From positions 6,683-70,682 of the forward strand of contig NZ_CAJMEH010000002.1 in assembly GCF_905212365.1 (NCBI RefSeq): a stretch of DNA of 64,000 bases. Direction: 5' to 3'. Every line of letters starts with the position of its first letter. Positions within the stretch are counted from its first letter, which is position 1. The stretch comes from an uncultured Phascolarctobacterium sp. GTDB lineage: Bacteria > Bacillota > Negativicutes > Acidaminococcales > Acidaminococcaceae. The translations under genes were made by a program, and so were the position numbers. The notes below the pieces were generated by a model. That model saw only the letters and a list, made by a program, of their open reading frames with translations. It had not been told where the DNA came from and did no database searches. Positions 2,194-28,963 of this stretch are shown here, piece after piece.

Positions 2194-2254
2194 TTAGAAT
2201 CCCTCACTTCATATTTTATATTATTTTTATCAATATATGGCAAATAACTATTCA

Positions 2255-3418: not shown

Positions 3419-3547
3419 TTTCTATTCCTCATTTGTTTTAATCTACAATGTTCACCATCACACCATAAATATACCATGTCTATCTTATTTTCCATTTGCT
3501 AAACTCCTTCCCATTCTATATATCTTATAAAATATATAATTAAGTCC

Positions 3548-4207: not shown

Positions 4208-4259
4208 ATCTTAAAAAAAATCATTTTGACCTTCGTAGGTTGTAGAATATGCAAATCCC

Positions 4260-4811: not shown

Positions 4812-4824
4812 CTTATAATCTCCG

Positions 4825-5992
4825 TCATTTTTCAGGTTGAAAATTTTGTTGTAAGCATAAAATGCCCCACAAGAAGAAATAAATAAGCATATGATATCTT
4901 AAAGTAGCGTTAACATCTACAAGTTCATGCACTAACATACCTATAATAATAGCAGTATAGACATTTTCATACGTCCACAATACGTTCATGTTGCGCAAAA
5001 CATTTTTGCAACATACTTTAAGCTGCCATAATATTAAAGCCAAATATGACACAAAGCCTACAAGGCCGCGCTCTGACAACAAAAATAAATACAAATTATG
5101 GGGATGAGGCAATCCTGGCTCTTTAGCCAACGGACTTATATAGCCAGATATATAATATTCAGACCATCTATGTAACCCCACACCCAATACAGGATAGTCA
5201 AAAAACATCTTAATGGCAGATTCCCATAGTAACAACCTTTCGCTATCATAACTACGCACATTAAACTTATAAAAAATTAATAGTGAAACAATAAATAGAG
5301 CAGCAAAAGACAATATGGCCATCTTATTCAACGCCATCTTGCACTTATTTACTAAAAACTATTACTTCAGCAATTATAGCCAACATAGCGCCCCTGCTAC
5401 CGGAAGATACGACACAAAAAAGTACGCCTAACAACGTAATGGAAAATATTAAGGAAAGTTTTTTATTATCTCTGTATTTATAAACTGCATATGCAAATAC
5501 AGGCACCATAATCTCCATACTAGAACCTAAAGCATTGGGATGTCCAAATAACCCTCCTACCCGTTTACCATACTTAGCTACATGAGTTAATAAGTCATGC
5601 ATGACAAAAATATCGTTAACAAATAATCCTGCGGCCATTCCCAAAAGCGCAAATAAAAAGCTTTTTTTGGGATTGTTGATAAAAAAATAAATTATCAATA
5701 GAGGAATAATTTTTTCAAAATCGCGCACGATGTACTTCATCGCGCCAAAATTATCCTGAAAAACTGCGCACAATGCTAATACTATCATATTTAACAGAAA
5801 TAAGAGCAGCGTTTTATTGAAATAAGAGCTGCGCACATTAGCTAGTCTGTGCTTATCTTTATAAAAAGCGTAAATAGCAAAAGGCAACGCAGCAGCATAA
5901 CAGCCTCCCGTAGATGTGGCTACTCCTGTTCCTATCACAAAAAGTGCTGCGGCTTTATAATAATCAGTATCTATACTCTTCAAATTCATCAT
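4825..5992 (-). pseudogene. waaL: O-antigen ligase (WaaL/Wzy_C family) split into two ORFs (5345..5992 and 4825..5337) by a frameshift
   Basis: The upstream ORF is multi-TM and ends with SGSRGAMLAIIAEVIVFSK, the conserved Wzy_C serine/arginine region. The downstream ORF continues with RLLLWESAIKMFFDYPVLGVGLHRW...HPHNLYLFLLSERGLVGF, the periplasmic loop and H motif. The two ORFs are 8 bp apart and in different frames. Confidence 0.6.
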
Positions 5993-6007
5993 TGCTCTAT
6001 CCCAACC

Positions 6008-7312
6008 TTACCATAAGCCGGAAAAGTGGTGCACACAATGTGTCTTTCCGGTAACTAAATAATGGTCTTTTTCCAATTCCGGTGAAAAATATTCTTTCGG
6101 ATAAACATGTACCCCCTCACAAGATAAATATGTATGACCGCCATCTAATTTTACACCATAATGTATGCGTGTGATTTTGCTGACAATCTTAGCGTTGGCT
6201 ATTTCCGTATAATCTTCATCACAATGCACGCAATCATACCATAATAATAATTCGGCAATCCATGGATGAAATTTTTTAGCGCCTACGGTGCTAATACAAA
6301 TGTGATTGCAAGGACCATACGTAGCGAAGGCGTCTTCCTGCAAAAAATCATCAAAATTTTTTAAAACCTCTACATCAGTATCTAAATAAATGCCGCCTTC
6401 ATAATATAAAGCATGCAGTCTCGCTATGTCGGCAATAAAAGCCCACTTTTTATTCGCCAAAGCCTCCTGAGCAAATCTGTATTTTTCTATGGGGAAATTA
6501 TTTTCATTCCATAATTTTATGGTGTAGCCCGGCAAAGCCTTTTCCCAGCTATCAACAAATTTTTTTACCGACTCTGGCATATTGGGATTACCAAACCAGC
6601 AATAGTGTATAACCTTGGGAATATAACCCTCGCCAGAAAATTTTTGCTTATATTTTTTGCTAAATTTATTTTTCAGCCAATGCTTAATCAAATCTTTATG
6701 AAATTTTATTTTCTGCCGCAATTCATTCAGATGATAACGCCAACCGATATATTTTCTTCTGTTGTTCAAATGCAAAACTAAAATATCTTCTAAATTTTCC
6801 TGCTGCAATAAATGCAGATTATATATTTTGCTAATCTTTTCTGCATCTGCAACATCCTCATAAATTCCAACATGTATATTGCGGAATCTATCCAAATACT
6901 CTACCAGCTTGATAAATTCCTGCATATCTTTAGTGGCTACGTTGTCTACGCAAAAAAGAACATGCTTAGCAGATAACTGCAAATAACTTTGTTTAATATT
7001 TTTCAAAAGCTCCCAGTTATGCAGCGGAACTATTACAGACTTTCCTAAATTACCAGCACTCAGCTCTGCATGAATTGCATTAAGCAAGCTTACTGTTTTC
7101 TTCTTATCTATTTTATTAACAGGCAAACTATCGCTCCATACTTTTTTGGCTTGTATCCCGCACATGAAACTATCAGGAAAATTCTTTCCTGTTACAACAT
7201 GCAGTTCATTATCAGTTTTTAATCTATCAATTAGATATTCAGAAAACGCAATCTCCGACGCTATCCTATCATATAAATAAATAACGGAAATCTGCATAAT
7301 ACCATCCCCCAA
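6008..7312 (-). CDS. glycosyltransferase with a C-terminal GT32-like sugar-binding/DXD domain
   Basis: 434 aa. C-terminal half has IPKVIHYCWFG...KKWAFIADIARLHALYYEGGIYLDTDVEVL, the Gly_transf_sug DXD signature. N-terminal domain unassigned. Confidence 0.55.
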   Translation of the reverse strand: MGDGIMQISVIYLYDRIASEIAFSEYLIDRLKTDNELHVVTGKNFPDSFMCGIQAKKVWSDSLPVNKIDKKKTVSLLNAIHAELSAGNLGKSVIVPLHNWELLKNIKQSYLQLSAKHVLFCVDNVATKDMQEFIKLVEYLDRFRNIHVGIYEDVADAEKISKIYNLHLLQQENLEDILVLHLNNRRKYIGWRYHLNELRQKIKFHKDLIKHWLKNKFSKKYKQKFSGEGYIPKVIHYCWFGNPNMPESVKKFVDSWEKALPGYTIKLWNENNFPIEKYRFAQEALANKKWAFIADIARLHALYYEGGIYLDTDVEVLKNFDDFLQEDAFATYGPCNHICISTVGAKKFHPWIAELLLWYDCVHCDEDYTEIANAKIVSKITRIHYGVKLDGGHTYLSCEGVHVYPKEYFSPELEKDHYLVTGKTHCVHHFSGLW

Positions 7313-7325
7313 TTAAACAGCTTTT

Positions 7326-8264
7326 TCAAAATATTTTCTTCACCAAATCAGCCCACTTCAAGCGCCACAGCTGCCTGCTGATAGAATGTTTCTTTTTTTT
7401 CAAATTAGGCTGCGGCATAACGGCGTCCCGATATTCTGTCAACGACAAATATTCATAATACTTGTCGTTAAATCCTTTATAAACCGCATACTCCCAAGGC
7501 TTATAGCCTCCTGCGTAATGCAGTATGGCAATATCAGCCAAAGCCACCAAAGCTTTCCGGCGTAATGTCTTATTCCATACTATTCTCAACATCATATTAA
7601 AAACAGGAGGAATAACATTCCAACGCAAAGGCAACGCCGCCCATCGGTTCATAAATAAATAATTTAAAGCGTCCTGGTCATGGTGCCTGAATTTTTTTTC
7701 TGCAATGAGCTGCACTAATTTGGCTGAAATATTTTCCTGCCGCCACTGCTGCAAATCCATTAATAAGACACCCGAATTAAAATAAGAATATTGCGGCTGC
7801 CAGCCTAAATTTTTGGCTTTTTCAGCGCATTTTCCTTTAGAGGATAAAATGCCAAAATCCTCAGCGGCCGCCAAAGGTTTACTCTGCATATCAAAACGCC
7901 AAAGCTCTGCAATATCGGCCAAAACCAGCAAATCGCAGTCTAAATATATTACCTTTTTAATAGCTTCAGGCACTATATTGGGAATATCCAAGCGCAAATA
8001 AGCCGCTCTGGTTAAATTCCCGCTTACAAAAACATTGCTGAAAGCCTGCGTATCTGCGCACACAAAATCAATTTGGGCGCTAAATTGGGCAACAGACTGC
8101 CGCATCTTCGCTTTATTGGCCTCGTCTATGCCATCGTCAATCACAAAAAAATGTACTGCTTCCGGTCTTGCAGTATTGCATAAAACCGAAGTCATGGCAA
8201 CGGTTGCATGCTGCGCGTAATTTTTATCAGTGGCTAAAACAATATTAATACTTTCATCAATCAT
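7326..8264 (-). CDS. glycosyltransferase family 8, LPS alpha-1,3-hexosyltransferase-like (RfaI/RfaJ type)
   Basis: NIVLATDKNYAQH, YLDCDLLV, NSGVLLMDL and HHDQDALN motifs of GT8. Contains two A8 tracts: 7692-7699 (mid-gene) and 7393-7400 (near the 3' end). Confidence 0.8.
   Translation of the reverse strand: MIDESINIVLATDKNYAQHATVAMTSVLCNTARPEAVHFFVIDDGIDEANKAKMRQSVAQFSAQIDFVCADTQAFSNVFVSGNLTRAAYLRLDIPNIVPEAIKKVIYLDCDLLVLADIAELWRFDMQSKPLAAAEDFGILSSKGKCAEKAKNLGWQPQYSYFNSGVLLMDLQQWRQENISAKLVQLIAEKKFRHHDQDALNYLFMNRWAALPLRWNVIPPVFNMMLRIVWNKTLRRKALVALADIAILHYAGGYKPWEYAVYKGFNDKYYEYLSLTEYRDAVMPQPNLKKKKHSISRQLWRLKWADLVKKIF
7692..7699 (-). repeat. A8 homopolymer (coding strand) inside the GT8 glycosyltransferase ORF; second A8 at 7393-7400
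   Basis: Plus strand reads attttttttc. It encodes ...AEKKF... in frame. Confidence 0.85.
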
Positions 8265-10137
8265 CTTTACGCGGTTCCTTATCCTCAGTCAATTTTCTGG
8301 TTCCTAAATTTGTAGTCAGCGTTTCACGAGTAAATTTATACTTACTGTTTAGCAGACTGTTACTCTCGTCGTAATGATTAGATTGAATCTGTAATAAATT
8401 GCAAACAACCTCATAAATCATATCATTAGTAAAATAAGCGTTTTTCTGCTTTTTAAAAACTTCAACAGACTCTTTAAACAGATTTTTATATTCGTCGGAA
8501 ACATAGACAAACATCGGTACCTGCAAGGATTTAAAGCCAGCTACATCAGGATGGCGCTTTCTGTAAGGGTCGCCGCCATGATCTGAAAAATACAGCATTG
8601 CCTGCAGGTTTAATTTATTAATGGCATACTGATGTACCTGCTGCAAAACATAATCTGTATAGGCCAAGCTATTATCATAGTTTAAAACCGTATCAAATTT
8701 ATGCGGCTCGCCAAATTTAGTAAACTCCGGCGGATATCTATTGATGCAGTCCTCATGACTGCCCATAAAATGCAAAACGACAAAATTATTTTCCTCAGGA
8801 TTTACCTGCTCCAAGCATTTTAATAGATCACCGTCATACTGATATTTGCCATTAAGCTCTTTATTTTCACTCAACCATTCCGCATGATCCGCCGTTTTGG
8901 CAACTAAGGTAATAGGCGTATCCGCGCCGCCTATATATCCCTGATTGCTGAACCAATAAGTTTTATAGCCCGCTTTTTTAGCTATATCGATAACTGTCAA
9001 GCTTTGATTAAATTCCTTATCATTATATTGATTTTTTTCTGTCAATGCTCTTTCCAAAGCAGGAACGGTCTGGCACTTGCTTGTATATGCGTGAGTAAAA
9101 ACGACAAAATTATCGTTCTTCTTCATATTGCGCAGCCAAGGCGTATTATCATTCTGCGTATCACTGTACGCGCTCATATAATAAGAAGAAGCAGATTCGC
9201 CAATTACTATGATAATAGTTGACGGCTTAGCAAAAACAGGTGCAGAAGGCGTAACAGTTAAATTATTAAAATTCTCCTTGTGATAAACTGTAAAATTATT
9301 AGCCCGCGTAAAATAATCTCCCGCTGCTACATAAGTTTTCATCACACCGGTATCCTTAAACATTTTAGCACCATAGCCTACGGTTGCCAAAATTACCACC
9401 GACAAAACAGCTACAGATTTTTTCCCAAAAGAACTGATTTTAATCTTATCTGCCGTAATTTCCTGCAAACTATTAAGCTTATACATCGTCATAAACAACG
9501 CTATGAAAAAAATTACAATGCCAGCCAAACCAGTAAAGCCAAAATTGAGCAGCAAATACTCTTTGGCCTCGCCGGGATTAGTTTGCAGTAAAGCGAGGGA
9601 TGCATCTTCAGTAACGGGATATTTATAATAGGCAAAATAAATTATTTGCACGACAGGTATAATTAACGCCGCTGTATGCAAAAAAGCAAACCCCCGCTGG
9701 CAAACGGCAGTATCCTGCCCTTTTCCGCGCCGCAATAAAATTAAGCGCAAGCATACGGAAAAGGCAAAAAAATACGCGCCAAAAGCCTGGTCAAAATGCT
9801 TATCAATAAACGTAAAAGTATTATGGTAAGTAATCCAATAACAAACCGGATATACCCAAATCCACAAAAAGCTTACGATCGCATGCGGCAGCAACATTTT
9901 ATAATTATAACCAGCACGCCGCCACAAATCGCAAGCTAACGCCACCGCTACAGCACAAGGTAAATATCTGCGCATTTGTAAAAAGAAAGTACTGTTTCTG
10001 ATACCCACGGCTGTAAAATAATATGCAGCAACCAGCAGCAAATATGTCGAAACTAAAACGATAAAAAATGTTCTATGTTTTCTAAATAAGTCCACTTTAT
10101 ATTTTCCTTTCTGCAAGCTATTTATTTTGCAGCTCAT
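8257..10137 (-). CDS. phosphoethanolamine transferase, EptA/EptB-like: N-terminal 5-TM domain plus sulfatase-fold domain, intact
   Basis: 626 aa. Contains PSTIIIVIGESASS, WFSNQGYIGGADTP and HFMGSHEDCINRYPPEF (the H-x-GSH / RYP motif of phosphoethanolamine transferases). Overlaps the upstream GT2 gene by 20 nt. Confidence 0.75.
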   Translation of the reverse strand: MSCKINSLQKGKYKVDLFRKHRTFFIVLVSTYLLLVAAYYFTAVGIRNSTFFLQMRRYLPCAVAVALACDLWRRAGYNYKMLLPHAIVSFLWIWVYPVCYWITYHNTFTFIDKHFDQAFGAYFFAFSVCLRLILLRRGKGQDTAVCQRGFAFLHTAALIIPVVQIIYFAYYKYPVTEDASLALLQTNPGEAKEYLLLNFGFTGLAGIVIFFIALFMTMYKLNSLQEITADKIKISSFGKKSVAVLSVVILATVGYGAKMFKDTGVMKTYVAAGDYFTRANNFTVYHKENFNNLTVTPSAPVFAKPSTIIIVIGESASSYYMSAYSDTQNDNTPWLRNMKKNDNFVVFTHAYTSKCQTVPALERALTEKNQYNDKEFNQSLTVIDIAKKAGYKTYWFSNQGYIGGADTPITLVAKTADHAEWLSENKELNGKYQYDGDLLKCLEQVNPEENNFVVLHFMGSHEDCINRYPPEFTKFGEPHKFDTVLNYDNSLAYTDYVLQQVHQYAINKLNLQAMLYFSDHGGDPYRKRHPDVAGFKSLQVPMFVYVSDEYKNLFKESVEVFKKQKNAYFTNDMIYEVVCNLLQIQSNHYDESNSLLNSKYKFTRETLTTNLGTRKLTEDKEPRKDD

Positions 10138-10864
10138 ACAGTTTCAAATACTTCATCATCGTATAAATAAAATGCTGTAAGCTGGAATATAATCCGCTCC
10201 AGCCATCCACAAATCCCAGCTGCAAAAAATACGCTCTCAAAAAGCCATACGCCGCATGCCCAAAACATGCGGCCAACGAAGTTTTTTTGCCGCGTTCGTA
10301 ATTATCCTGCGCCCAAATCGTCGTATAATTGCCAGCTTTATCCCACCATTGCTGCCAACAAGTATAAGTATAATGCTCAATGAAGCCTTTTAATTTTTCT
10401 TTTGGCAAATCACAAACCGGATGCTCATGTACTTTATTTACCCAATGCACTTTATCAGAGGGAAACAGTCTTAATACTTCGTCAGGTTTAAAAATGCCAT
10501 GCATATATGTAAATCCAAAGGCATGAATTTTTCGCATCATACTATATTGTTTTATTTTGTGATTTGCAGCAGCAGCTTTTATAGCAGAACAAAGTTCTTG
10601 ATTAAGCCTTTCATCAGCATCTAAATACAATACCCATTCCGTAGCGATATGCTGCAAAGCAAAGTTACGCTGCGCAGAAAAATCATCATCCCAAGCGCGA
10701 TAGATAACGCGCGCTCCGTTTGCTTCCGCTAGGGGCACAGTCTTATCCGTACTGCCGGAATCGACTACTAGCACGCAATCTGTAAGCTGCCGCGCGTTTT
10801 GCACTACGTCGGCTATATTCGCTTCTTCATTTTTAGTTAGTATCACAACGCTTAATTTTGACAT
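10118..10864 (-). CDS. GT2 family glycosyltransferase, WaaE/KdtX-like LPS core glycosyltransferase
   Basis: SVVILTKNEEANI...VVDSGSTDKTV...DDDFSAQRN is the canonical GT2 N-terminus of WaaE-type enzymes. Confidence 0.75.
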   Translation of the reverse strand: MSKLSVVILTKNEEANIADVVQNARQLTDCVLVVDSGSTDKTVPLAEANGARVIYRAWDDDFSAQRNFALQHIATEWVLYLDADERLNQELCSAIKAAAANHKIKQYSMMRKIHAFGFTYMHGIFKPDEVLRLFPSDKVHWVNKVHEHPVCDLPKEKLKGFIEHYTYTCWQQWWDKAGNYTTIWAQDNYERGKKTSLAACFGHAAYGFLRAYFLQLGFVDGWSGLYSSLQHFIYTMMKYLKLYELQNK

Positions 10865-10882
10865 AAATGTTATCCTTTGCTC

Positions 10883-12391
10883 TTAAGAGTTTATATGCAC
10901 TATCCATTCGCCTTTACGGTCGGACCCCTGACGTTCAATAATATTTTTATCTTTCAGCTTTCGCATCAACCTAGATACTGCTGATTTACTTAAACCAAGT
11001 TGTTGAGCAACTTCTCTAACACTTACTCTTGGGTCATTTAATAAAATATCTAGTAACCGTTTTTCTTCTACCACCTTAATTTGTCCCGCATTTTGTCCCG
11101 GTTTTTCTCCTATTTCTCCATTTTGTCCCGCATTTTGTCCCGGTTCTTTCGTTATCTCTTGAGTTTGTCCCACAGTTTGTCCCGGCTGCTTCGCTATTTC
11201 TTGCGTTTGTCCCGCGTCCAAATTCCGATAAATATTGAACCGCAGTTCCGTCTCTCCGCCCAAAATTTCCAGTTTTTCTAAGCCAGCATCTTTAATCATC
11301 TTTGCAACACGTAACATCCCCGTACCCCAGCGTTCGATTAAATGCATATAGCTAAATGCCATAGCTAATGCTTCATTGCGCACTTTGGAATAGCCTTCAC
11401 GCATTTTTTGGATAGTCTGTCCAATAGGCAATTTGCCTGGAGAAGTTATCTCTAATCGATTATCAAAAATCGCCACTTGAATATTCCCGTTATCCAAATA
11501 ACTACGATGCACAGCTGCATTTATAATCAACTCGCGGATAGCAGCAGGAGGAATTTCATAGACATCCTGCCTATACAGACCTTCAATTACTGCACCAAGA
11601 TGAATGTTACGCAATACAAAATGATAAGCATTTTCGATTATATCCTGTACCGGCCCTGTAAATTCACGTCTGTCAACAAAAATAACGCGTTCATTATCCT
11701 TAAAAACTGCACATTGAAAAGTACAATGCAAAATAGCTGACCCAGTAAGAATCGCATAAGCGTTGGTCGGAAGCATTTTCCCTTCTTGCTCCACCAAAAC
11801 ACCCCATGACAGCAATTGTTTAGCAGAAACATCCTTCACCAGCGCTTGTTCTTCCTTGCTGCTGCAATTGCACAAAGCTACTTCTTTCATACGCCGACAA
11901 AGATTTTCAATATCCGCTTCGCTAACCTGCAACCCCAAACAAATAGTTTTATCGAAGAAGCGGTTATTTCCTTCAAAAAGCAATTCTTTCACCATATATT
12001 CATCTGCCGCTCTAGTAGTACCTGCCACACGCACATATACACCGTATGGCAAGCCTTCTGCCGCAAGATAATAAGGCCTTTGCCGACCTGGTTCTATATC
12101 AACAATGATAATAGTTGCGCCATCAATCGTCTGCATATAAATATCAGGAATAATCGCAGGCTTACAACTGTCAGATATAGCATTAGCTACAGAATCCATA
12201 ATATTAAAGGCATCATTTTTATCGACGCCGACAATTCTTCTCGTCTCGTCCTCAACACCGATGACCAGCTTACCACCTTGCCCATTAGCGAAAGCAATGA
12301 TAGTTTTCATGTATTTGCTACTTTTAGCTGGCAGGCTTTCTTTAAATTCAACATTCTTAGATTCGCCTGCAAGAATTTCCTCTATCGTCAT
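10883..12391 (-). CDS. putative regulator with three domains: AlbA_2 (Schlafen-like), HATPase_c_4 and a C-terminal winged HTH
   Basis: 502 aa. N-terminus KNVEFKESLP...AFANGQGGKLVIGV is AlbA_2. The middle has RELIINAAVHRSY...ITSPGKLP (HATPase_c_4). The C-terminus is an HTH. The linker contains imperfect ~42-bp tandem repeats encoding PGQTVGQTQEITKE / PGQNAGQNGEIGEK. Confidence 0.65.
   Translation of the reverse strand: MTIEEILAGESKNVEFKESLPAKSSKYMKTIIAFANGQGGKLVIGVEDETRRIVGVDKNDAFNIMDSVANAISDSCKPAIIPDIYMQTIDGATIIIVDIEPGRQRPYYLAAEGLPYGVYVRVAGTTRAADEYMVKELLFEGNNRFFDKTICLGLQVSEADIENLCRRMKEVALCNCSSKEEQALVKDVSAKQLLSWGVLVEQEGKMLPTNAYAILTGSAILHCTFQCAVFKDNERVIFVDRREFTGPVQDIIENAYHFVLRNIHLGAVIEGLYRQDVYEIPPAAIRELIINAAVHRSYLDNGNIQVAIFDNRLEITSPGKLPIGQTIQKMREGYSKVRNEALAMAFSYMHLIERWGTGMLRVAKMIKDAGLEKLEILGGETELRFNIYRNLDAGQTQEIAKQPGQTVGQTQEITKEPGQNAGQNGEIGEKPGQNAGQIKVVEEKRLLDILLNDPRVSVREVAQQLGLSKSAVSRLMRKLKDKNIIERQGSDRKGEWIVHINS
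11086..11230 (-). repeat. intragenic imperfect tandem repeats (about 3 units of ~42 bp) in the linker of the AlbA_2/HATPase_c_4 regulator
   Basis: The motif ttgtcccg recurs about every 30-45 bp. The encoded protein shows a repeated (E/K)PGQxxGQ pattern. Confidence 0.6.
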
Positions 12392-12427
12392 GTTTTGTCA
12401 CCTTATAAGCTTTTTTAATTATAATAT

Positions 12428-12898
12428 TCACAGCTCTTTGAAAGTTTTTATATGCACTATCCATTCGCCTTTACGGTCGGACCCCTGACGTTCCAATAGC
12501 TTTTGCATCTTTAATGAACGTATAGCTCTCGTGACGTGGCTTCGGCTAAGGTTTATATCATTGCACAACTTCAAAATTGTACTTTGAGGATGCCTCTTAA
12601 AATATTGCAAAACTGCTTTTTCTACATCATTCAAGCTATCATTTTCAGTCTCATTTTCACTTTTAGTCTCACTTGATTCTAAAAATGCAGGATGAATAAA
12701 AATGGTAGACGTAAAAGAAAGTCTATCGTCGTCCGTTTCAAAAAGCGGCTTAGGCGATCCGTTAGCTTCCAAAGCGTTTAATATTTTTCTAAAGCCGGTA
12801 TTACGGTACGGCCAAATACCCTTAGCCGCTTGCGCCAGCGCGTCGTTCTTTACACCTTTACTTGACTCTAGTATAATATAAATATAGTTGATTATCAA
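12428..12898 (-). pseudogene. truncated paralog of the upstream regulator, keeping only the C-terminal HATPase_c_4 tail and the HTH
   Basis: The 156-aa ORF ends ...LERQGSDRKGEWIVHIKTFKEL. The last 15 aa and a 47-bp DNA stretch (12457..12503) are identical to the 3' end of 10883..12391 (10889..10935). It lacks the AlbA_2 N-terminus. Confidence 0.5.
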
Positions 12899-12917
12899 GG
12901 AAAAGAGAGTTAATTGA

Positions 12918-12981
12918 GCATAAAAAAAGAATAAAAAGCAGGACGCTATGTTAAAAATATAATCACCATAGCGCCCTGCTT
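12918..12981 (-). terminator. rho-independent terminator downstream of the second EptA-like gene
   Basis: 15-bp stem (aagcaggacgctatg / catagcgccctgctt, one mismatch) followed on the minus strand by a T-rich run. Confidence 0.5.
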
Positions 12982-12993
12982 TTATCTTATTTA

Positions 12994-14779
12994 TTAAATA
13001 TGCGTATGCCCGGCATTGGTTAATAAATCCTCCCGGCGGTATTTAAAATTCGGCGAAGCCAGCGAATTGGTTTCGTCAAATTTATTGGACTGCACGTTAA
13101 AAACGCTGCACAATAATTCATACGCTAAATCGTTGGTCCAATATAAATTTTGGTGTTGGCGCAGCGTTTCCACCACGTTTTTATTTTTAGCGATGTATTC
13201 GTCAGAAAAATAAGTCACTAGCGGAATGCGCACACTGCCCATGCCGTCGAAATTAGGCGAGCGCCGTCCGTCCGGAACCGTGGCGTGGTCGGAAAAATAA
13301 ACCATCGCCTGCAGGTTTAATTTTTCCTGGGCGTAAGCGAAAATTTTGCTCAAAACATAATCCGTATACGCAATGGAATTGGCGTAATTTAATTCTAATT
13401 CATATTTGCCGGGCGTACCGAATTTAGTAAATGCTTCTGGATAACGATTGAGAAAATTAAAGTGGCTGCCTTTAAGATGGATAACGACGAAATTGTTGCT
13501 CTGCGGGTCTACCTCGTCTAAAAAATCCAAGAGCGATTCATCATACTGCACAGTATTTAATTGCTGCTTCGTCCACTTCGCCACGTCGGCGGTATCGGCA
13601 ATTAAAGTTACCGGCGTATCTGCCGAGCCCAAATGGCCCTGATTACTATACCAGTGAATCCTGTACCCCCCCCAGTGCACGCACTACATCTATGATGGAG
13701 CAGGCTTCATAAAATTTTTTATCGTTATACTGATTGATTTCCGTCAACGCATTTGATACGGCCAAAACTGTATTGGCGCCGATGGAATAAGCGTTAGGGA
13801 AAATAATGCAATTCGACATTTCGTTGAGTTTATTCAGCCACGGCGTCGTGTTGTGCGGATACGCCGGGTTGACAGCTTGCATATAATCGCGCGATGCCGA
13901 TTCGCCAATCACCAGCAAAATGGTCGACGGCTTGGCAAACTTTTCCGCTAACGGCTGCACCGTTAAATTTTTAATGCGCTCCCGCATATTAGATTTGTAT
14001 AATTTATTAGTTTCCAAATAGGTTTTGACGTCCAAATAAAATTCCACGATGGCGGTACGAATAAATACGCCGTGCTTTTTCTTCCACAAGTAGCAAGACA
14101 AAAAAGCTACGATAGCCGCTAAAATTGCCACAGAATATAAAGACAACGGCTGCGTTTGCGTCAACGCGCCGTAATTTGCCCAGCTGCACACGCCTATCAT
14201 TAAGACAACGCCTAACACCGAAAAAATATTGTACGCCAAAGGCAGGGATTTAAAATATTCGATGATCTCATTGTAATGCGTTTCTTGCAGCATCTGCATA
14301 CCGTTTTCGTTGATGCAGGCTTTATACAAAGCGAAATAACCTAACTGCGCCAAGGGTATCAATAAGAAAATTATTTCCAGCACAGTTATAACAACAGCTG
14401 CAGGCAGTGCCAACGCAGAAATTTGCCGTGCCAAAATCCCCAAAGACGATATCCAGCTGATAATATACAAACCAAAAACAGCCTCAAAATGAAATTCAAA
14501 ATCCGAAGACACCTTATGATTGCTGATATAATACAGAGTTGGATATGTTAATATCCACAGCCAGCAAATAATAGTGGGAATAACAAATAGTGGTGAAGAC
14601 AGCGGCAGCTGTGTGACAGCCGCAGGCAGCAGCGCCAAAATAGCGCAGGGCACAAAACGGCGCATCTGCAGATAGGTTGCTTTATTTCCAAGGCCATGGG
14701 AAATTGCAAAATAATAACCATATGACAAAATATAAAACGCAATGGCAACATAGATATAAGCATCATACATGATAAGCAT
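12994..14779 (-). pseudogene. second EptA-like phosphoethanolamine transferase, frameshifted at a G8 tract into ORFs 13646..14779 and 12994..13680; putative phase-variable gene, currently OFF
   Basis: The upstream ORF has the membrane domain plus KPSTILLVIGESASRDY. The downstream ORF begins HWGGYRIHWYSNQGHLGSADTP and contains HLKGSHFNFLNRYP. A G8 tract on the coding strand sits exactly at the junction. Removing one G gives ...DVVRALGGYRIHWYSNQG..., which aligns colinearly with the intact paralog (DIAKKAGYKTYWFSNQG). Confidence 0.75.
13666..13673 (-). repeat. homopolymeric G8 tract (C8 on the plus strand) at the frameshift site of the EptA-like gene
   Basis: Plus strand reads ctgtacccccccc agtgcac; counted directly. 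Confidence 0.9.
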
Positions 14780-14880
14780 TAATCCTTTCTAAATTAAGTA
14801 TGAATATTCTTTATAAATTAAATCCATTAATATTGTATTACAGATGCAGTGGATAGTCAATTACGCATATAGCAAAGACC

Positions 14881-14917
14881 CAAAAAATAAGAGCCTTCGG
14901 ATTTCTCCAAAGGCTCT
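14881..14917 (-). terminator. rho-independent terminator immediately downstream of the partial tRNA-Ser copy
   Basis: Stem agagcctt / aaggctct with an 11-nt loop, followed on the minus strand by TTATTTTTTG. Confidence 0.55.
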
Positions 14918-14930
14918 AAAACCGCATGGT

Positions 14931-14989
14931 TGGCGGAGTGGGTGGGATTCGAACCCACGCACGGGGTAAACCGTCTAACGATTTAGCAA
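14931..14989 (-). repeat. 59-bp partial copy of the 3' end of tRNA-Ser(GCU): T-arm, acceptor 3' strand and CCA. Direct repeat of 16607..16665.
   Basis: Identical to the intact tRNA over 59 nt (tggcggagtgggtgggattcgaacccacgcacggggtaaaccgtctaacgatttagcaa), then diverges. Confidence 0.8.
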
Positions 14990-15120
14990 CTCACGCCTGC
15001 CCATTGCATTGCTTCTAGGCACTCTTTTATTTCCATATTTTCAACTGGTTTAGATATATTATAAATTAATTCTATATTTTACACATATTCGTCGAAGATA
15101 AGCCCCCTAAATCACCTATC

Positions 15121-15540
15121 TTAAGAGATACCATCCTCAATAGCTTCTTTTTCATGAAAAGATTTTACCGCCGCAACGAATCCATTGGCTTCATCTACTA
15201 ATTTCAGCACATCTTCTTCAGATAGCTCAAAATAGTCATCGTAATCACTCATTGAGCGACTTGCAAATAGATTAGAAATTGTATCAGACAAATCCTTCCC
15301 AAAAACACCATTCTTAACATAGTGCATTCTGAAATACGATATCACACCAGAATGCTTAGAAAAATCTTTCCCATCAGTAGCTAAAACAGAACGCATAGCA
15401 TGAAACACAGCATAATAAGCCCTATTGACAGCCCCACGACTATCTCCTATGGCAAGCAGTGCATTTGCTGCCTTAAGGCATTGGTGCGCCTGCTCTAATC
15501 TAAGGCTAGCAAGACTCCGCTTCTCCTCATCATGCAGCAT
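15121..15540 (-). CDS. HEPN domain protein, toxin component of a HEPN/MNT pair
   Basis: 139 aa. Overlaps the upstream nucleotidyltransferase by 11 nt. RAYYAVFHAMRSVL is the HEPN helix pattern. Confidence 0.75.
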   Translation of the reverse strand: MLHDEEKRSLASLRLEQAHQCLKAANALLAIGDSRGAVNRAYYAVFHAMRSVLATDGKDFSKHSGVISYFRMHYVKNGVFGKDLSDTISNLFASRSMSDYDDYFELSEEDVLKLVDEANGFVAAVKSFHEKEAIEDGIS

Positions 15541-15871
15541 AAACCACTACACCATCCTTCTCGATATTTTGGTAAAAAGGTAAAATAGGTTTTCTAGCAT
15601 GGAATGCCTTCTTATCCAAAAGAAACATTGACAACAAAATATCGTGTTCCAATCCTACACGGCTGAAGATTTTATTTAATGTCCAAAGTATTTTCCTGTT
15701 CTCTTCTGGCTCCATATTCGTTAACACCAATACATCCACATCAGACTCCTCGGTATTATCGCCGCGAGCATAGGAACCATACAAAACTACTTTGTCGAGC
15801 TTATCACCCAAAAGATCATAAATCTGCTCGGTCAGCTCTTTTAAAACAATATCTAACTCACTACGTTTCAT
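15530..15871 (-). CDS. minimal nucleotidyltransferase (MNT) antitoxin
   Basis: VVLYGSYARGDNTEESDVDVLV is the G[SG]x9-13Dx[DE] nucleotidyltransferase motif. Confidence 0.8.
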   Translation of the reverse strand: MKRSELDIVLKELTEQIYDLLGDKLDKVVLYGSYARGDNTEESDVDVLVLTNMEPEENRKILWTLNKIFSRVGLEHDILLSMFLLDKKAFHARKPILPFYQNIEKDGVVVYAA

Positions 15872-15983
15872 AGCAATTTCCTCCTTGCAGACCTATTTCT
15901 ATAATAATTATACACTTACTTCACATTACCAGCAAGAGAAAAGTCTTTGACAATACGATATTCAAAACTCTTGACTAAATAAC

Positions 15984-16292
15984 TCATAAGCCTAATTCCT
16001 TTTCCAAATTAGCGAAAACTTCAGAAGCAGGCTTTACTCTACCTGCGAGCACATCCTGATATCCCTTTTCCAAAGCTTCATCAAGTTCGGCTTCTGTCAT
16101 TTTACTCATATCCAGCGGATGCCTATATGGTATTTTAACATCAAAAGGAATTCCTCTTTGCAGGATAATTTGCTTATAAAACATATTAATGGCGTTCGAT
16201 ACAGGAGTCCCTAAAGTCGATAAAATTTCTTCAGCTTGTTTTTTCACATCTGGCTCAATTCGAGCATAAAGATTTGCAGTTTTGCTTGCCAT
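15984..16292 (-). CDS. RelB/DinJ family antitoxin, orphan: no cognate toxin ORF is adjacent
   Basis: MASKTANLYARIEPDVKKQAEEILSTLGTPVSNAINMFYKQIILQRGIPFDV is the DinJ ribbon-helix-helix family. The track ORF extends to 16358 through an implausible N-terminus; the likely start is the ATG at 16292. Confidence 0.65.
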   Translation of the reverse strand: MASKTANLYARIEPDVKKQAEEILSTLGTPVSNAINMFYKQIILQRGIPFDVKIPYRHPLDMSKMTEAELDEALEKGYQDVLAGRVKPASEVFANLEKELGL

Positions 16293-16552
16293 ATTATCAA
16301 CTCCTCTACCTGTTAGCTTCTTTTTCTTTATTATACATATTTGTAAGTACAAAAGCAATACTAATGTAGATGCTTTGTGTAAGAAAGCTCAAAACTCTAA
16401 GAGTTAAGAGAGCATCCATACAGAATCGCCAAATTGATATTCCTTGCGTTATTTCTAAGATAATGGATTTTTTATCATAAGCCCCACGTGTATAAAACTT
16501 AATACAAATTACTCTCAGTTATACAGCTAATACTCCATCTTTTCTTTTGCTA

Positions 16553-16594
16553 GGCAAATAAAAACGGCTTCGTAGATTATCTCTACAAAGCCGT
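16553..16594 (-). terminator. rho-independent terminator immediately 3' of tRNA-Ser(GCU)
   Basis: 12-bp stem acggcttcgtag / ctacaaagccgt (one mismatch), followed on the minus strand by TTTTTATTT. Confidence 0.6.
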
Positions 16595-16606
16595 CGTTTA
16601 TTGTGT

Positions 16607-16698
16607 TGGCGGAGTGGGTGGGATTCGAACCCACGCACGGGGTAAACCGTCTAACGATTTAGCAAACCGTCCTCTTCAGCCAGCTTGAGTACCACTCC
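16607..16698 (-). tRNA. tRNA-Ser (anticodon GCU), 92 nt, encoded CCA
   Basis: Hand-folded. Acceptor stem GGAGTGG / CCACTCC, anticodon loop TTGCTAA, long variable arm, T-arm GTGGG-TTCGAAT-CCCAC. Confidence 0.85.
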
Positions 16699-16766
16699 AT
16701 TAGACTACTATATTAGTATAACAGAAGTTTTACTTTTTGGCAAGAGCTTCTGCACAATTTTTTATT

Positions 16767-16856
16767 TGGCGGAAAGGGTGGGATTCGAACCCACGGAAGG
16801 CTTGCGCCCTCGCTAGTTTTCAAGACTAGAGCCTTAAACCGCTCGGCCACCTTTCC
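16767..16856 (-). tRNA. tRNA-Ser (anticodon UGA), 90 nt, encoded CCA
   Basis: Hand-folded. Acceptor stem GGAAAGG / CCTTTCC, D-arm GCC-GAGCGGTTTAA-GGC, anticodon stem-loop CTAGT-CTTGAAA-ACTAG, long variable arm. Confidence 0.8.
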
Positions 16857-16901
16857 ATATAAATGTAATTATACGTTAAAAGCGTCCTTCCGTCAAGCCT
16901 T

Positions 16902-17534
16902 TTACGCTAAAGCTGCGTCCGTGGCCTGCAACGTCCTTGCCTCCAACAGCGCCGCCTGTTCCAGCATAGCCGTCAGCTCCCTGCTCACCGCTTTGTTATA
17001 CTCCGCGTCCTTCGTCAGCTGTAAATTGATGCGCACATTATAATCGGCGCAGCGCAAAGCCGCACGCGCCAGCAAAGCGCTGCACGCACCATCGGTGATT
17101 ACGCCCGGATTGCCAACCGCCACCAGCCTGTCTGCCAGCTGCAGCGCCAGCAAAGCCGTGCGGGCAATGGCTAACGGCACCGCCGCCGCCCGCTTTGCTG
17201 CCATGCGCACAGCCTGCGTCCGCGCTGCCTTTTCCTCCTCCGTCGCTTTCGGCAGCCTGTAACACGCCATAAAGCTTTCAAAGGCCTTAGCGTCGTCCTC
17301 TGCCAGCTGCAAAAGCTCCGAGCGCGCGGCTTCGGCCTGCGACAAAAGCTCCTTAACCTCCGCTTCCTGCGCGGCAAAGCGCTCCTTCCCCACAGTGAGA
17401 TTACCCACCATGGAAGCCAGCGCCGCCGCCAAAGCCCCGGCCATAGCGGCAGGGCCGCCGCCCCCCGGAGTGGGCGCTGCCGAAGCCAAAGCCGTCAAAA
17501 AAATTTTGCTGCTCATTTCGGTCAGATTCTGCAT
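16902..17534 (-). CDS. cyclodeaminase/cyclohydrolase family protein (FTCD C-terminal domain-like)
   Basis: N-terminal APTPGGGGPAAMAGALAAALASMVGNL is the hallmark glycine-rich helix of the formiminotransferase-cyclodeaminase C-terminal domain. Confidence 0.65.
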   Translation of the reverse strand: MQNLTEMSSKIFLTALASAAPTPGGGGPAAMAGALAAALASMVGNLTVGKERFAAQEAEVKELLSQAEAARSELLQLAEDDAKAFESFMACYRLPKATEEEKAARTQAVRMAAKRAAAVPLAIARTALLALQLADRLVAVGNPGVITDGACSALLARAALRCADYNVRINLQLTKDAEYNKAVSRELTAMLEQAALLEARTLQATDAALA

Positions 17535-17606
17535 ATTTTACCTCTTTTCTGTACAAACGGCTATGCAGCGCAAGCCTTCTGCTCACGTCTGCATAGCCGT
17601 AAACTA

Positions 17607-18011
17607 CTAACTCTTATTTTGCGCCAGCCAGCGCCGCACCTGTACCACCGCCGCATAAGCGTCCAGCGGCTCAGGCGGAACCTGCAGGCCTAAGGGCAAA
17701 AGCCTCCGCCAACCCTTAGGCGGATTTTCCTGCCAATACAAGCTGCGCGCTTCCTCCGTACTATGCGCTTCGCCAACTAGCGCTAAAACCGTATTGGGAA
17801 AAACCTTCTGCACCGCTACGCCGATGGCCTTACTATTAGTGCCGTCGCCCATAATAATCTGCGCCGGCTGCTCCTGACCAGCAAAAATGCGCAGTTCGCT
17901 GGCAATGCTATCCGTAACTGCAATGCGCAGCGCCAGAATACTGCCGTCAGCTGCCACCAAAGCCAAGCCTGTTTTGCTGCGTCCTGGGTCGATTCCCAAA
18001 TACTTATTCAT
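17607..18011 (-). CDS. hypothetical protein, possibly an RNase-H-fold (YqgF/RuvC-like) nuclease
   Basis: N-terminal LGIDPGRSKTGLALVAADGSIL resembles the resolvase-like first strand/Asp. Weak. Confidence 0.3.
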   Translation of the reverse strand: MNKYLGIDPGRSKTGLALVAADGSILALRIAVTDSIASELRIFAGQEQPAQIIMGDGTNSKAIGVAVQKVFPNTVLALVGEAHSTEEARSLYWQENPPKGWRRLLPLGLQVPPEPLDAYAAVVQVRRWLAQNKS

Positions 18012-19155
18012 TATCGGGCAGCACCTCCAGCCGCACCCTTACTGGCCCGGCCGTAGTAATATCTCCCTTGGCATAAGCTCTGAGCGTAAATTTACCGTTA
18101 GTACGCCGCATAGCGTTGCTGGTTTCAATCATCGTCGCCGCATCCATGTTGCCAACCTTGCCGGTCAACGGATCCGGCAACACGCCTGCTTCCACAGCAC
18201 GATGATTTACCTGAGTCAGGAAAGCCATAATAATATTTTCGTAGCTCTCCGGAACAGCATCTGCATACTCCTGGCTTAAAATCAAAGAGCCGTCGGGATA
18301 AATAAATTGATTCTCAAAAATTTCAATTTCACAAACGACTAATTCGCCCACAATGATATTCGCTACTGTGCGTATCCGGAAAAACAGATTGCCCTTGCTT
18401 TGGTCCAAAGCGTTGATAGCGTCCGTTACTATATTTTTAGAAATCCAGATAGCCTGCAAAGGCTGTTCCTCCTGCTGCACGCCCAAGCGTTGCAAGGCTA
18501 TCTCATTAGCATTTTGCAGCAACCAATTAACTTGCGCCACATTTTCCTCGTGCTTCAGGCCGCCGCGCATTACCCCGGCGTAAACTATCTCGCCGGCACG
18601 ATAATAAACCTGCCCCTCGCGCATATTGATAATACCCTTGCGCAAAGCGTCGGTAGTCTTTTCCAGATTTTCTATTTCGCCGGTAAGCTGCACTTTAGCG
18701 TCAGTTAAGCTTGCTACCTCCGCCTGAGCCTGACTGTACATCTCATTCATTTGCGCCAGTTTAGCGTCCATTGCGTCGTTTTCTCTGGTGCTTTCCTTAA
18801 TCTTCGCGTCCAGAATACTGATCTGCTGATTTTGTTCATCCACTTTATTTTTCGCCTCAGACAGCGCATCGGCCGCATCGGCCTTTTCTTCGTTCAACAG
18901 CTTTAATTCCTGCTGCAGCTTTTCCATACCGAACAACGCGGTACGCGCGCTTTGCGAAGCGATGGTCATTACGCCGATGGTCAGCACGGCAATCATGGTA
19001 CCGCTGATTACCGTCAGCAAAATAGAAGTATATTTGGGACGCAGGCCAAAAACGGACATTTTCTTTTTGCCGATTTTACTGCCCATTTTATCTGCAATAT
19101 ACGCGATCAACCCGCCGACGATGGCCATAATAATAATCATTCTGATGCCTACCAA
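18004..19155 (-). CDS. membrane-anchored coiled-coil protein, DUF3084-like
   Basis: N-terminal TM helices, a long coiled-coil (LQQELKLLNEEKADAADALSEAKNKVDEQNQ...) and a C-terminal globular domain. Confidence 0.35.
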   Translation of the reverse strand: MVGIRMIIIMAIVGGLIAYIADKMGSKIGKKKMSVFGLRPKYTSILLTVISGTMIAVLTIGVMTIASQSARTALFGMEKLQQELKLLNEEKADAADALSEAKNKVDEQNQQISILDAKIKESTRENDAMDAKLAQMNEMYSQAQAEVASLTDAKVQLTGEIENLEKTTDALRKGIINMREGQVYYRAGEIVYAGVMRGGLKHEENVAQVNWLLQNANEIALQRLGVQQEEQPLQAIWISKNIVTDAINALDQSKGNLFFRIRTVANIIVGELVVCEIEIFENQFIYPDGSLILSQEYADAVPESYENIIMAFLTQVNHRAVEAGVLPDPLTGKVGNMDAATMIETSNAMRRTNGKFTLRAYAKGDITTAGPVRVRLEVLPDNE

Positions 19156-19191
19156 ATAACCGCCTCCCTAAAATTATCGCACAGCTTTCGC

Positions 19192-20283
19192 TTATACGTT
19201 TTTCTTTTTCATCAAGTACAGTCCCGTAAACAGGCACAAAATATTAGGCAGCGCACAGGCCAGCAGCGGCGGCATTGCTCCGCCCTTCCCCAAGCCGGTG
19301 GTAAAGGTCATGATCGCGTAATAAATAAAAATTACGATGATACTGATGCCCAAACCAATGGACGAGCTGGTACGCTGCTTCTGCGTGCCTAAGCACGCGC
19401 CAATCATCGCGAAAAAGAAGCTGGCCAACGGAATATTGATACGCATAAATATTTCGCACCATTGCCTGTTGGTAGGCGTCTGCTGCTTTTCCAGCATGCC
19501 AATATATTCCCGCAGCTCGCGAATAGTCATCTCCTCCGGGTCCTTTTGCTCCCAGGATATCTGCTTGGGAGAAAAGTTCAGCGGAATGATTTGCTCCTTA
19601 AACTTCGCCGTGCTTTGCACGCCTTCCTCGTCGTCTAAAGCGAAAACATTGCCGTTGACAATGCGCCAGGTTCCGTTTTCCCAATAGCCCTCTCTGGCCG
19701 TTTGAATGCGGGATATTCTTCCCTTATTGAATTCTTCGATAGTGATATCGGTCATTTTGCCAAGCTTTTCGTCAAATTTATTGGCGTAGGTAACGCGCTG
19801 CGTATCTCCGCTGATAGTTTTGATGACGATATGGCTTTGGGTAGACGGTCTGCTGTTATGCCTGATTTCTTCATTAAGTATTCTCGAAGCCTCCGCCTTA
19901 GAGGCAGGCACTACCTTTTCCGCCCACACCATAGAAAACATGCTGACGATAAAGCCAACCACCAGCACCGGCGCTACAATGCGGTAATAGCTGACGCCGC
20001 CGGCCTTCATAGCCACAATCTCACTGCTGCCGGACAGCTTGCCAAAAGCCATCAGCGCAGCCAGCAGCATGGACATCGGGAAGGTATAATTGATAATCTC
20101 CGGCAAATTATACATGAATAAACGCCCTACGGTTTCCAGAGAAGCGCCGTAACGAGTCATGTACTGAGTAATTTTAAACAGCATGGTGCTGGCAATAAAA
20201 ATACTGGAGAAAGCGGCGATACCGAAAACGAAGGGATACAGCAGTTCCCTTAATACATAACGGTCTAATAAACGTAAACCCAC
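19192..20283 (-). CDS. lptG: LPS export ABC transporter permease, LptF/LptG family
   Basis: MGLRLLDRYVLRELLYPFVFGIAAFSSIF is the conserved LptF/G N-terminus. 6 TM helices plus a periplasmic beta-jellyroll. Confidence 0.8.
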   Translation of the reverse strand: MGLRLLDRYVLRELLYPFVFGIAAFSSIFIASTMLFKITQYMTRYGASLETVGRLFMYNLPEIINYTFPMSMLLAALMAFGKLSGSSEIVAMKAGGVSYYRIVAPVLVVGFIVSMFSMVWAEKVVPASKAEASRILNEEIRHNSRPSTQSHIVIKTISGDTQRVTYANKFDEKLGKMTDITIEEFNKGRISRIQTAREGYWENGTWRIVNGNVFALDDEEGVQSTAKFKEQIIPLNFSPKQISWEQKDPEEMTIRELREYIGMLEKQQTPTNRQWCEIFMRINIPLASFFFAMIGACLGTQKQRTSSSIGLGISIIVIFIYYAIMTFTTGLGKGGAMPPLLACALPNILCLFTGLYLMKKKNV

Positions 20284-20294
20284 TTTTCTTCCTC

Positions 20295-21014
20295 CTACAT
20301 ACTAAAATTATCGCCAAGGTAATACTTTCTGGCAATAGGATCGTTGGCGATAGTTTTACTGTCGCCGTGCAGCAAAATCTTGCCTTCTGCCAGAATATAG
20401 GCCTTATTGACAATGCTCAGCGTTTCGCGCACATTATGATCCGTAATTAATACGCCAATGCCGCGCTGCGCTAAATGAGCGATCATGCCCTGAATATCGG
20501 CAACCGCGATGGGGTCGATACCGGCGAAAGGCTCGTCCAGCAAAATAAAGGCCGGATCGGTAGCCAAAGCGCGGGCAATTTCCACGCGGCGGCGCTCGCC
20601 GCCTGACAGCGCTTTACCCTCGCTTTTACGCACATGGTTTAAACGAAATTCGTCCAGCAAAGCGTTCATCTTTTCCTCACGCTCGGCCGCAGCCAGGGAT
20701 GTGGTTTCCAAAATCGCCATAATATTGTCTTCTACCGTCATTTTGCTGAAAATAGAAGCTTCCTGAGGCAAATAACCAATACCGTTGCGAGCCCGCTCAT
20801 ACATGGGCATACCGGAAATATCCCTGCCGTCCAGGGTAACTTTACCGGAATCAGGCTTTTCAATACCGACAATCATGTAGAAGGTCGTCGTCTTGCCCGC
20901 GCCGTTAGGCCCTAAAAGCCCCACTACGCTGCCCTGCTCCACGCTTATGCTGACGCCGTCAACTACATGGCGTCCTGAATATATCTTGACAAGATTATCT
21001 GTTTTAATAACCAA
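20295..21014 (-). CDS. lptB: LPS export ABC transporter ATP-binding protein LptB
   Basis: Walker [10 protein letters not shown], signature LSGGERRR, Walker [12 protein letters not shown]. 239 aa, typical of LptB. Confidence 0.9.
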
Positions 21015-21032
21015 GCTTGTGCCCTCCGTTAA

Positions 21033-21797
21033 TTAAGCTGTGGCCTGCTCGCCCTGCTGCTCCTTACCGGGAACAGCAGGCTGCTTTTCCGGAATGTAAT
21101 GAATTTTTACATTGCCGTCGGCAACGGCTACATTGGTATTGGTCAGACGCAGCTTATCTCCGGCTACAGAATTACCGTTCTGCATAGCCTTGGCGTTGCC
21201 AATAAGCTCCACATAACCGCTGTTATCCGTTTTATAAACTGCACTGTCAGAAGAAGCCTTCAGGTCGCGGGCCGGGCTGTCAATATCAACGCCGCCGTAA
21301 GCGTTGGCTACGCCCTGCGCCATATCGTAATCTATTTTAGCCGCATTCATTACGCTACCGTCAACATCGGTCAAGCGCGCCCAGCTGCCAATAGTTTCCG
21401 CAAACTGACGCTCCTTATAATAATCCACTCTATCGGCGCTGAGGCTCTTGCCCGCTTTAGTAATAACTGCGCCGCCTACAGCGGAAAGATCGTTTTCATT
21501 ATGAGCGATAAATTCATTGCAGACAATATGCGCATCCTCACGGTCGGCAATAACGTTGCCTATCAATGTGCCGCTTTTCGTTTTACTGTTAAATTTAGCA
21601 TAATCAGCCGTAGCCTTGCCGCCGTTTTGCAGTAAAACCACATGACCCTTGGCCTCGCCCTCGCCGGTCTGCAAATTATATTCCAGCTCGTCGGCCTGCA
21701 CGCTGAAATTATCCGCAGCAGCCAGGCAGGTAGCGCTCAGCCCCAGCGTCAACAGCGCGGCAGCAGCCGTCAGCAAAATTTTCTTAGTATAATTCAT
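21033..21797 (-). CDS. lptA: periplasmic LPS transport protein, LptA/OstA-N family
   Basis: Signal peptide followed by the repetitive beta-jellyroll pattern (GNV...ADxxxY). Positioned between lptC and lptB. Confidence 0.55.
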   Translation of the reverse strand: MNYTKKILLTAAAALLTLGLSATCLAAADNFSVQADELEYNLQTGEGEAKGHVVLLQNGGKATADYAKFNSKTKSGTLIGNVIADREDAHIVCNEFIAHNENDLSAVGGAVITKAGKSLSADRVDYYKERQFAETIGSWARLTDVDGSVMNAAKIDYDMAQGVANAYGGVDIDSPARDLKASSDSAVYKTDNSGYVELIGNAKAMQNGNSVAGDKLRLTNTNVAVADGNVKIHYIPEKQPAVPGKEQQGEQATA

Positions 21798-21798
21798 C

Positions 21799-24839: not shown

Positions 24840-24850
24840 CTTTCTACAGC

Positions 24851-25669: not shown

Positions 25670-25681
25670 AGTCAGCCTCCT

Positions 25682-28944: not shown

Positions 28945-28963
28945 GTACTAACCTCTTTTCGCC

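Follow-up and report, generated by a model that had tools for sequence, protein, structure and literature searches.

Phase variation of lipopolysaccharide (LPS) genes through homopolymeric tracts is textbook biology in host-restricted pathogens such as Neisseria, Haemophilus, Campylobacter and Helicobacter; for gut commensals, attention to phase variation has so far rested on invertible promoters. In Neisseria, eptA, the gene for a phosphoethanolamine (PEtN) transferase, is phase-variable via an intragenic homopolymer (PMC10525099), and poly-G phasomes are established in both Campylobacter and Neisseria (PMC11868660). In Bifidobacterium breve, replication slippage at an intragenic G-tract switches sortase-dependent pili on and off (PMC9187656). 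Here we describe a comparable locus in a 64-kb stretch of DNA (the window) from a human-gut Phascolarctobacterium (Negativicutes), where the gene for a predicted EptC-like LPS PEtN transferase is divided into two open reading frames (ORFs) at a run of eight G residues (G8). An earlier reading of the window from its letters alone (the original prediction) had proposed a slipped-strand poly-G switch that is ON at G7 and OFF at G8, and the comparison of alleles set out below supports it. We consider it likely that the tract is such a switch, standing OFF at G8 in this strain, and that it is one of a set acting on LPS genes in the genus.

On the minus strand the tract reads GTGCACT-GGGGGGGG-TACAGG (C8 on the plus strand) and lies inside the 35-nucleotide (nt) overlap of two ORFs that are offset by one base (Table 1). 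The original prediction had placed the run at this junction between differing frames, and its coordinates were confirmed. The upstream ORF would start at its first Met or, 374 amino acids (aa) long, at MYDAY (14770), the second Met and the one that databases use. Its product contains the GES motif with Glu293 and the conserved Thr337, ends in the out-of-frame tail VQDSLV and is identical to P0146 (WP_293727942.1), which has an annotation of its own as a 'sulfatase-like hydrolase/transferase'. The downstream ORF carries HLKGSH (434–439) and SDH (496–498) and reaches the native stop without a secondary lesion; databases hold this half as the 212-aa P0145 (WP_293727941.1). Conceptual deletion of one G fuses the frames, as had been proposed, into a 594-aa ORF reading ...RALGGYRIHWYSNQGHLGSADTP..., which matches P0001, an intact 591-aa orthologue from other samples (99% identical) that has the same reading and carries G7 in its DNA. 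At G7 the tract codons are CTG GGG GGG TAC (Leu-Gly-Gly-Tyr). Over computed tract lengths, the stop-to-stop ORF across the tract spans 597 codons at G7 and 598 at G10, compared with 392 at G6, 380 at G8 and 393 at G9; the frame is restored by G7 or G10 and not by G9. A change of one unit at this position flips the reading frame, as at a contingency locus.

The repaired protein matches the Pfam Sulfatase family (PF00884) at 111.5 bits (cut-off 25) over residues 286–545, a span that crosses the junction at residues 370–371, and a crude hydropathy scan confines hydrophobic 19-residue windows (Kyte–Doolittle mean >1.6) to residues 1–233. The best solved structure is Escherichia coli EptC (5zzu, E=6.5e-21), followed by Campylobacter jejuni EptC (4tn0, E=3.3e-14); the match to the MCR-1 structure is much weaker (E about 4e-6). 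The GES, Thr337, HLKGSH and SDH motifs align with those of 5zzu, and roles of these Glu, Thr, His and Asp-His residues as metal-site residues and nucleophile are established for the PEtN-transferase family. CptA is the top NCBIfam model (NF007933; E=1.1e-39, 136 bits), under its 404-bit cut-off, and the EptA model (NF007160) reaches 90 bits where 561 are required. EptA_B_N (PF08019) was undetected in the repaired protein at E ≤ 0.01. The original prediction of an EptA-like PEtN transferase, to be checked by searching the repaired ORF for PF00884 and EptA_B_N, was therefore right about the sulfatase-fold PEtN transferase and wrong about EptA, the core-heptose type EptC/CptA being the closest. 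As judged by homology, the gene encodes a member of the sulfatase-fold PEtN-transferase superfamily, of EptC/CptA type and an equivalog of no curated family, and its acceptor is probably a sugar or phosphate of the inner core and not lipid A. The frame shifts downstream of the Thr but ahead of the His and Asp-His residues, and by inference from the known active site of the family neither half could be active.

The tract stands out from the run-length spectrum of its surroundings, for which the 64-kb window and LPS-centred loci served as the background sample. G/C runs of lengths 3–7 in the window number 859, 120, 12, 1 and 0, dropping 7–12-fold for each extra base, and there is then one run of length 8. 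This G8 is the sole G/C run of at least 7 in the window, which holds two runs of at least 6 and none of exactly 7, and by extrapolation it lies about 100-fold above the trend. We preferred these spectra to a dinucleotide-shuffle null (1 found, 1.98 expected), which was uninformative, since the avoidance of G/C runs in the genome is lost on shuffling.

Orthologous alleles, with OFF fragments located among members of 90% protein clusters, carry the tract in several states (Table 1). DNA identity is 87–99% among alleles with G6, G7, G8 (three lineages) or an interrupted tract, and G6, G7 and G8 all occur in alleles that are 98–100% identical. Comparing tract length among strains, a check suggested by the original prediction, thus finds all three states at the same site in near-identical strains. 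Between L030 (SRR9333268) and L005 (SRR9333284), 10,577 bp align with 0 mismatches and one gap, which is the tract (G8 versus G7). Because one indel stands here against no substitution in 10.6 kb, the indel rate at the tract would be far above the per-base substitution rate, a rough estimate that selection could inflate. As reconstructed from these alleles, the tract has undergone at least four independent changes of length, gains as well as losses. Among the members listed for cluster 1, ten read LGGY and one LGEY, and P0002, in a cluster of its own, also reads LGEY; at the protein level, clusters 1 and 2 contain two tract-OFF alleles each. Every split at the tract coincides with a change in its length, in place of the homopolymer-free splits in relatives that would have marked a fixed pseudogene. 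A scan of JGI metagenome contigs with the 5′ flank of the tract gave no match. One further allele, P0157 (257 aa, from a Logan contig of 1,984 nt), has its frameshift at a coding-strand T6 run (window 14100–14105) and not at the poly-G, which is either an error in the contig or a genuine second way of losing function.

Homopolymer length is a classic miscall, and the source of the window is a metagenome-assembled genome (MAG). It is nevertheless very improbable that the true tract is G7, with the gene intact and G8 an artefact of sequencing or assembly. An ENA contig from a separate assembly (21,369 nt versus 74,144 nt) also has G8 and shows 100% identity across 4.6 kb, two separate runs agree on G6, and +1 and −1 states both recur in other lineages. 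None of the 27 A/T runs of at least 7 in the window breaks a real gene, one flagged T7 lying in a shadow ORF. An assembly riddled with homopolymer errors was rejected, since no ORF of a real gene is interrupted at an A/T run of at least 7. We give still less credence to recoding, by which the G8 allele would be expressed all the same through +1 ribosomal frameshifting or transcriptional slippage. Long homopolymers can cause RNA-polymerase slippage and P-site tRNA slippage, but the runs known to be efficient in transcriptional slippage are A/T runs of at least 9, longer than G8; most alleles, moreover, are simply in frame with G7, and the G6 state that is also found would require the opposite shift. 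No stimulatory element was seen, in an analysis that made no search aimed at one.

Similar tracts recur across a survey of related LPS loci from Phascolarctobacterium, about 277 kb in all. G/C runs of lengths 5–8 number 34, 14, 15 and 9 there, forming a plateau, and the corresponding A/T runs (1539, 576, 156 and 13) decay smoothly. All 25 G/C runs of at least 7, the window's included, lie within ORFs with G on the coding strand; they occupy 11 distinct sites, and at 10 of these the intact ORF has a tract length of 7. Coding-strand poly-G is over-represented in the LPS genes of the genus. The tract genes tested with Pfam comprise three PEtN-transferase paralogues, in which the position of the tract differs, together with Acyl_transf_3, GT1, GT2, GT8, hexapeptide-transferase and YrbL-like genes. 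By manual count, 14 of the 25 runs are at the intact length and 11 are not; a stricter automatic rule scored 14 as ON, 8 as OFF and 3 as unclassified. Among the A/T controls, none of 18 runs of at least 8 was OFF, and no real OFF was found among 179 runs of 7. Two flagged controls were set aside: a T7 at 22124–22130, spuriously OFF in shadow ORFs opposite real minus-strand genes, and an A7 in L017 that merely reflects an adjacent C6 tract. On balance we favour the view that Phascolarctobacterium has a Campylobacter-like, LPS-directed poly-G phasome of at least 11 sites, usually ON at G7 and each independently ON or OFF; as a simple-repeat contingency system it would be the first on record for Negativicutes. 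Literature searches on phase variation or homopolymeric tracts in Phascolarctobacterium, Negativicutes and Veillonella, with incomplete full-text coverage, returned nothing relevant.

Several of these sites can be compared between genomes. A separate poly-G site (flank CGAAGTTGTCTTTTA-C(n)) is present in a second PEtN-transferase paralogue, which shares 30% identity with the window gene. In eight genomes or metagenome contigs (three genome-collection copies that are about 99.2% identical in DNA, and five metagenome contigs recovered by exact flank match), one copy of this tract is C6, four are C7 and three are C8, and C7 alone leaves the ORF undivided (590–596 aa where the contig holds the whole gene). 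An Acyl_transf_3 (O-acyltransferase-type) gene adjoining LPS genes was seen in four genomes that are 90–96% identical and share the same flanks; it is intact at C7 (366 aa) in two and split at C8 in the other two. A gene resembling YrbL of the PhoP network carries G8 in all three genomes in which it was seen, and its ORF of 192 codons would grow to 243 at G7. In three loci a GT8 glycosyltransferase gene has G7 and is intact. The YrbL-like gene lies within 0.5 kb, and the GT8 gene about 4 kb, from a PEtN-transferase orthologue. Six Phascolarctobacterium-type PEtN-transferase contigs (L009, L014, L016, L019, L025 and L027) sit inside MAGs labelled Escherichia coli, Bacteroidaceae, Segatella copri, Bacteroides sp., Prevotella sp. 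and Mollicutes, probably through mis-binning.

The window tract could also be a mutational hot spot with no evolved switching role, the Gly-Gly codons making up a G7 run by chance and its slips being ordinary loss of function, borne or even favoured in certain hosts, in a dispensable, decaying accessory LPS gene, an account that we judge unlikely. A number of observations are in its favour and weigh against a switch. The tract is short, G7 and G8 ranking among the shortest that count as phase-variable in Neisseria and Campylobacter. Nor is it strictly conserved: two lineages have it interrupted (G5AG and GGGAGGG), and a more remote group (70% identical) lacks the tract as well as one of the Gly residues. 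Outright loss of function likewise happens in the LPS locus, where a second gene of the same window (WaaL-like) is broken by an apparent deletion of about 16 nt that is no homopolymer slip and the P0157 allele of the transferase gene itself is broken at its T6 run, and the surrounding locus is mosaic, with a toxin–antitoxin insertion and gene fragments. It also counts against a switch that all comparison sequences are metagenome assemblies, each a majority consensus and not a clone. Against a hot spot in a decaying gene, however, stands strong purifying selection: the ratio of nonsynonymous to synonymous substitution rates (dN/dS) is 0.08 against L005 (dS 0.58) and 0.05 against L006 (dS >2), and the half downstream of the frameshift is at least equally constrained (0.05 against L005). 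No further stop or indel was seen in the OFF alleles, which are interspersed among ON alleles, a pattern to be expected of short-lived, revertible OFF states, though no proof of reversion. GGG is the rarest Gly codon (10%), yet L006 retains GGG-GGG after a G-ending Leu codon despite dS >2, a single post-hoc observation. The recurrent indels at one site, one of them on a 10.6-kb background with no substitution, argue in the same direction, as do the 11 separate coding-strand poly-G sites in glycan genes where G/C runs are otherwise avoided.

In the switch that we propose, the gene would encode an inner-membrane, periplasm-facing PEtN transferase, made as the full 591/594-aa enzyme at G7 or G10. 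Slipped-strand mispairing in replication would add or remove one G, and at G8 or G6 the frame would shift after about residue 371. The OFF product would keep the membrane domain, Glu293 and Thr337 and, being without the His and Asp-His metal-site residues, would be inactive until a further slip regained G7. A population would then be a mix of cells with and without PEtN on their LPS. Such a mix would change surface charge and epitope, and hence how far cells are exposed to phages, antibodies or cationic peptides. What we infer is that replication slippage is responsible, along with the reversibility and rate of switching and the selective agent behind it.

An intact PEtN-transferase paralogue lies in the same window, and the original prediction had cast the two as a constitutive and a switchable copy. 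They are colinear (E=3e-134), which bears out the paralogy; because they are only 38% identical, the neighbour more probably has a different acceptor than serves as a redundant copy. Between the two paralogues, at 10883–12898(−), lies a gene for a 502-aa protein with Schlafen AlbA_2, HATPase_c_4 and winged-helix domains, with a 156-aa piece of a second copy directly 5′ of it. On the other side, upstream of the split transferase gene, a 1.6-kb toxin–antitoxin insertion (14989–16605) comprises a RelB-like antitoxin gene and a nucleotidyltransferase/HEPN pair; it is absent in L001, L002 and L028, which are otherwise 98% identical. Because a terminator-like hairpin and then a promoter match stand directly 5′ of the transferase gene, adjoining its start codon, the gene may be transcribed on its own; these are consensus matches only, and the number of such sites in the region is not above that in shuffles.

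The surrounding LPS cluster includes genes for lipid A, for 3-deoxy-D-manno-oct-2-ulosonic acid (Kdo) and for export (MsbA-like, a WaaA–LpxK fusion, KdsB/A/D/C, a lipid A acyltransferase and LptC/A/B/FG), along with GT1, GT2, GT8 and DXD-type glycosyltransferases, a split WaaL-like ligase and a pyruvyl transferase. The fusion is a single 844-aa ORF at 26413–28947(−) that joins a Kdo transferase domain (WaaA, Glycos_transf_N) to an LpxK lipid A 4′-kinase domain. The WaaL-like O-antigen ligase (Wzy_C; 4825–5992(−)) is split into ORFs of 215 and 170 aa. Its closest intact homologue, P0166 (73% identical), aligns with a 5-residue gap at the split junction, which implies a deletion of about 16 nt; a second homopolymer slip was rejected here on account of that gap. 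No near-identical intact copy of the window's WaaL-like gene is on record, and the strain may be without O-antigen ligation.

Table 1. The poly-G tract, its alleles and other features of the LPS loci. Plain coordinates refer to the window; L numbers denote related loci and contigs.
Feature	Location	Strand	Remarks
Poly-G tract, G8 here	13666..13673	-	Codes Gly370-Gly371 when G7; site of the +1 frameshift
5′ gene part, G8 (OFF) reading	13646..14779	-	377 aa; multi-pass membrane domain and first catalytic third
3′ gene part, other frame	12994..13680	-	228 aa; remaining catalytic domain
Whole PEtN-transferase gene (EptC/CptA-like)	12994..14779	-	594 aa at G7
Allele G7, ON	L001, L005, L006		Protein identity 99%, 91% and 81%, respectively
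Allele G6, OFF	L028, L029		Two runs, mutually 100% identical
Allele G8, OFF	Window; L037		L037, an ENA contig from a separate assembly, matches the window at 100% identity
Allele G8, OFF	L030 (SRR9333268)		
Allele G8, OFF	L031		Further lineage, 95% nt identity to L030
Allele G5AG, ON	L002-L004		Gly to Glu
Allele GGGAGGG, ON	L007		Synonymous
Intact PEtN-transferase paralogue	8257..10137	-	626 aa; 38% identical; no G/C run of at least 6
LPS cluster around the gene	1162..30706	-	Genes named in the text
Terminator-like hairpin, then sigma-70-like promoter match	14917-14890, then 14860-14832	-	Promoter match TTGACT-17-TACAAT
Second PEtN paralogue tract	L017 10923-10928; L019 10146-10153; L021 11384-11390; L032-L036		
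Acyl_transf_3 tract	L017 4045-4051; L018 3954-3960; L021 3951-3958; L027 4059-4066		
YrbL-like tract	L005 5554-5561; L030 7484-7491; L007 5553-5560		
GT8 tract	L002 11711-11717; L003 6122-6128; L006 6186-6192		

If the switch operates as proposed, Phascolarctobacterium endotoxin would not be one fixed molecule: surface charge, recognition by TLR4/MD-2 and antibodies, sensitivity to cationic peptides and polymyxin, and phage receptors would vary within a strain, and a genus-wide phasome would give combinatorial LPS variation in an abundant gut commensal. Metagenome annotation would then go on splitting such genes or naming them pseudogenes, as RefSeq does here with two proteins, and public read sets can directly test poly-G switching. 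The locus would also offer a tractable entry to the LPS biology of diderm Firmicutes, which to our knowledge is almost uncharacterised.

Set beside the known systems, the locus shares with eptA (lptA) of Neisseria meningitidis and N. gonorrhoeae a sulfatase-fold PEtN transferase, predicted here to act on LPS. Neisseria EptA, however, modifies lipid A head groups, whereas the Phascolarctobacterium gene is EptC/CptA-like, with no detectable EptA_B_N; one host is a proteobacterial pathogen and the other a diderm-Firmicute gut commensal, and the base and position of the tract are unrelated. The EptC enzymes of E. coli (CptA) and C. jejuni have the same membrane-then-periplasmic architecture with the Glu/Thr/His/Asp-His motifs kept, although the Phascolarctobacterium protein falls below the NCBIfam CptA cut-off (136 versus 404 bits), and neither eptC gene is known to be phase-variable. 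The C. jejuni phasome resembles the set described here in its many intragenic poly-G tracts in surface-glycan genes, its ON/OFF differences between strains and its association with the gut. Its phase-variable genes act on lipooligosaccharide, capsule and flagellar glycan, and Campylobacter is not known to have MutS/MutL-type mismatch repair. Campylobacter tracts are usually G8–G13, whereas the ON length in Phascolarctobacterium is 7 at nearly every site. B. breve is likewise a human gut commensal that switches a surface structure at an intragenic G-tract, but it is a monoderm actinobacterium whose targets are pilus genes and not LPS, and its slippage was measured by maximum-depth sequencing where ours is deduced from assemblies. 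The mechanism is thus already well known from Neisseria eptA; what is new is the host group and the different branch of the enzyme family.

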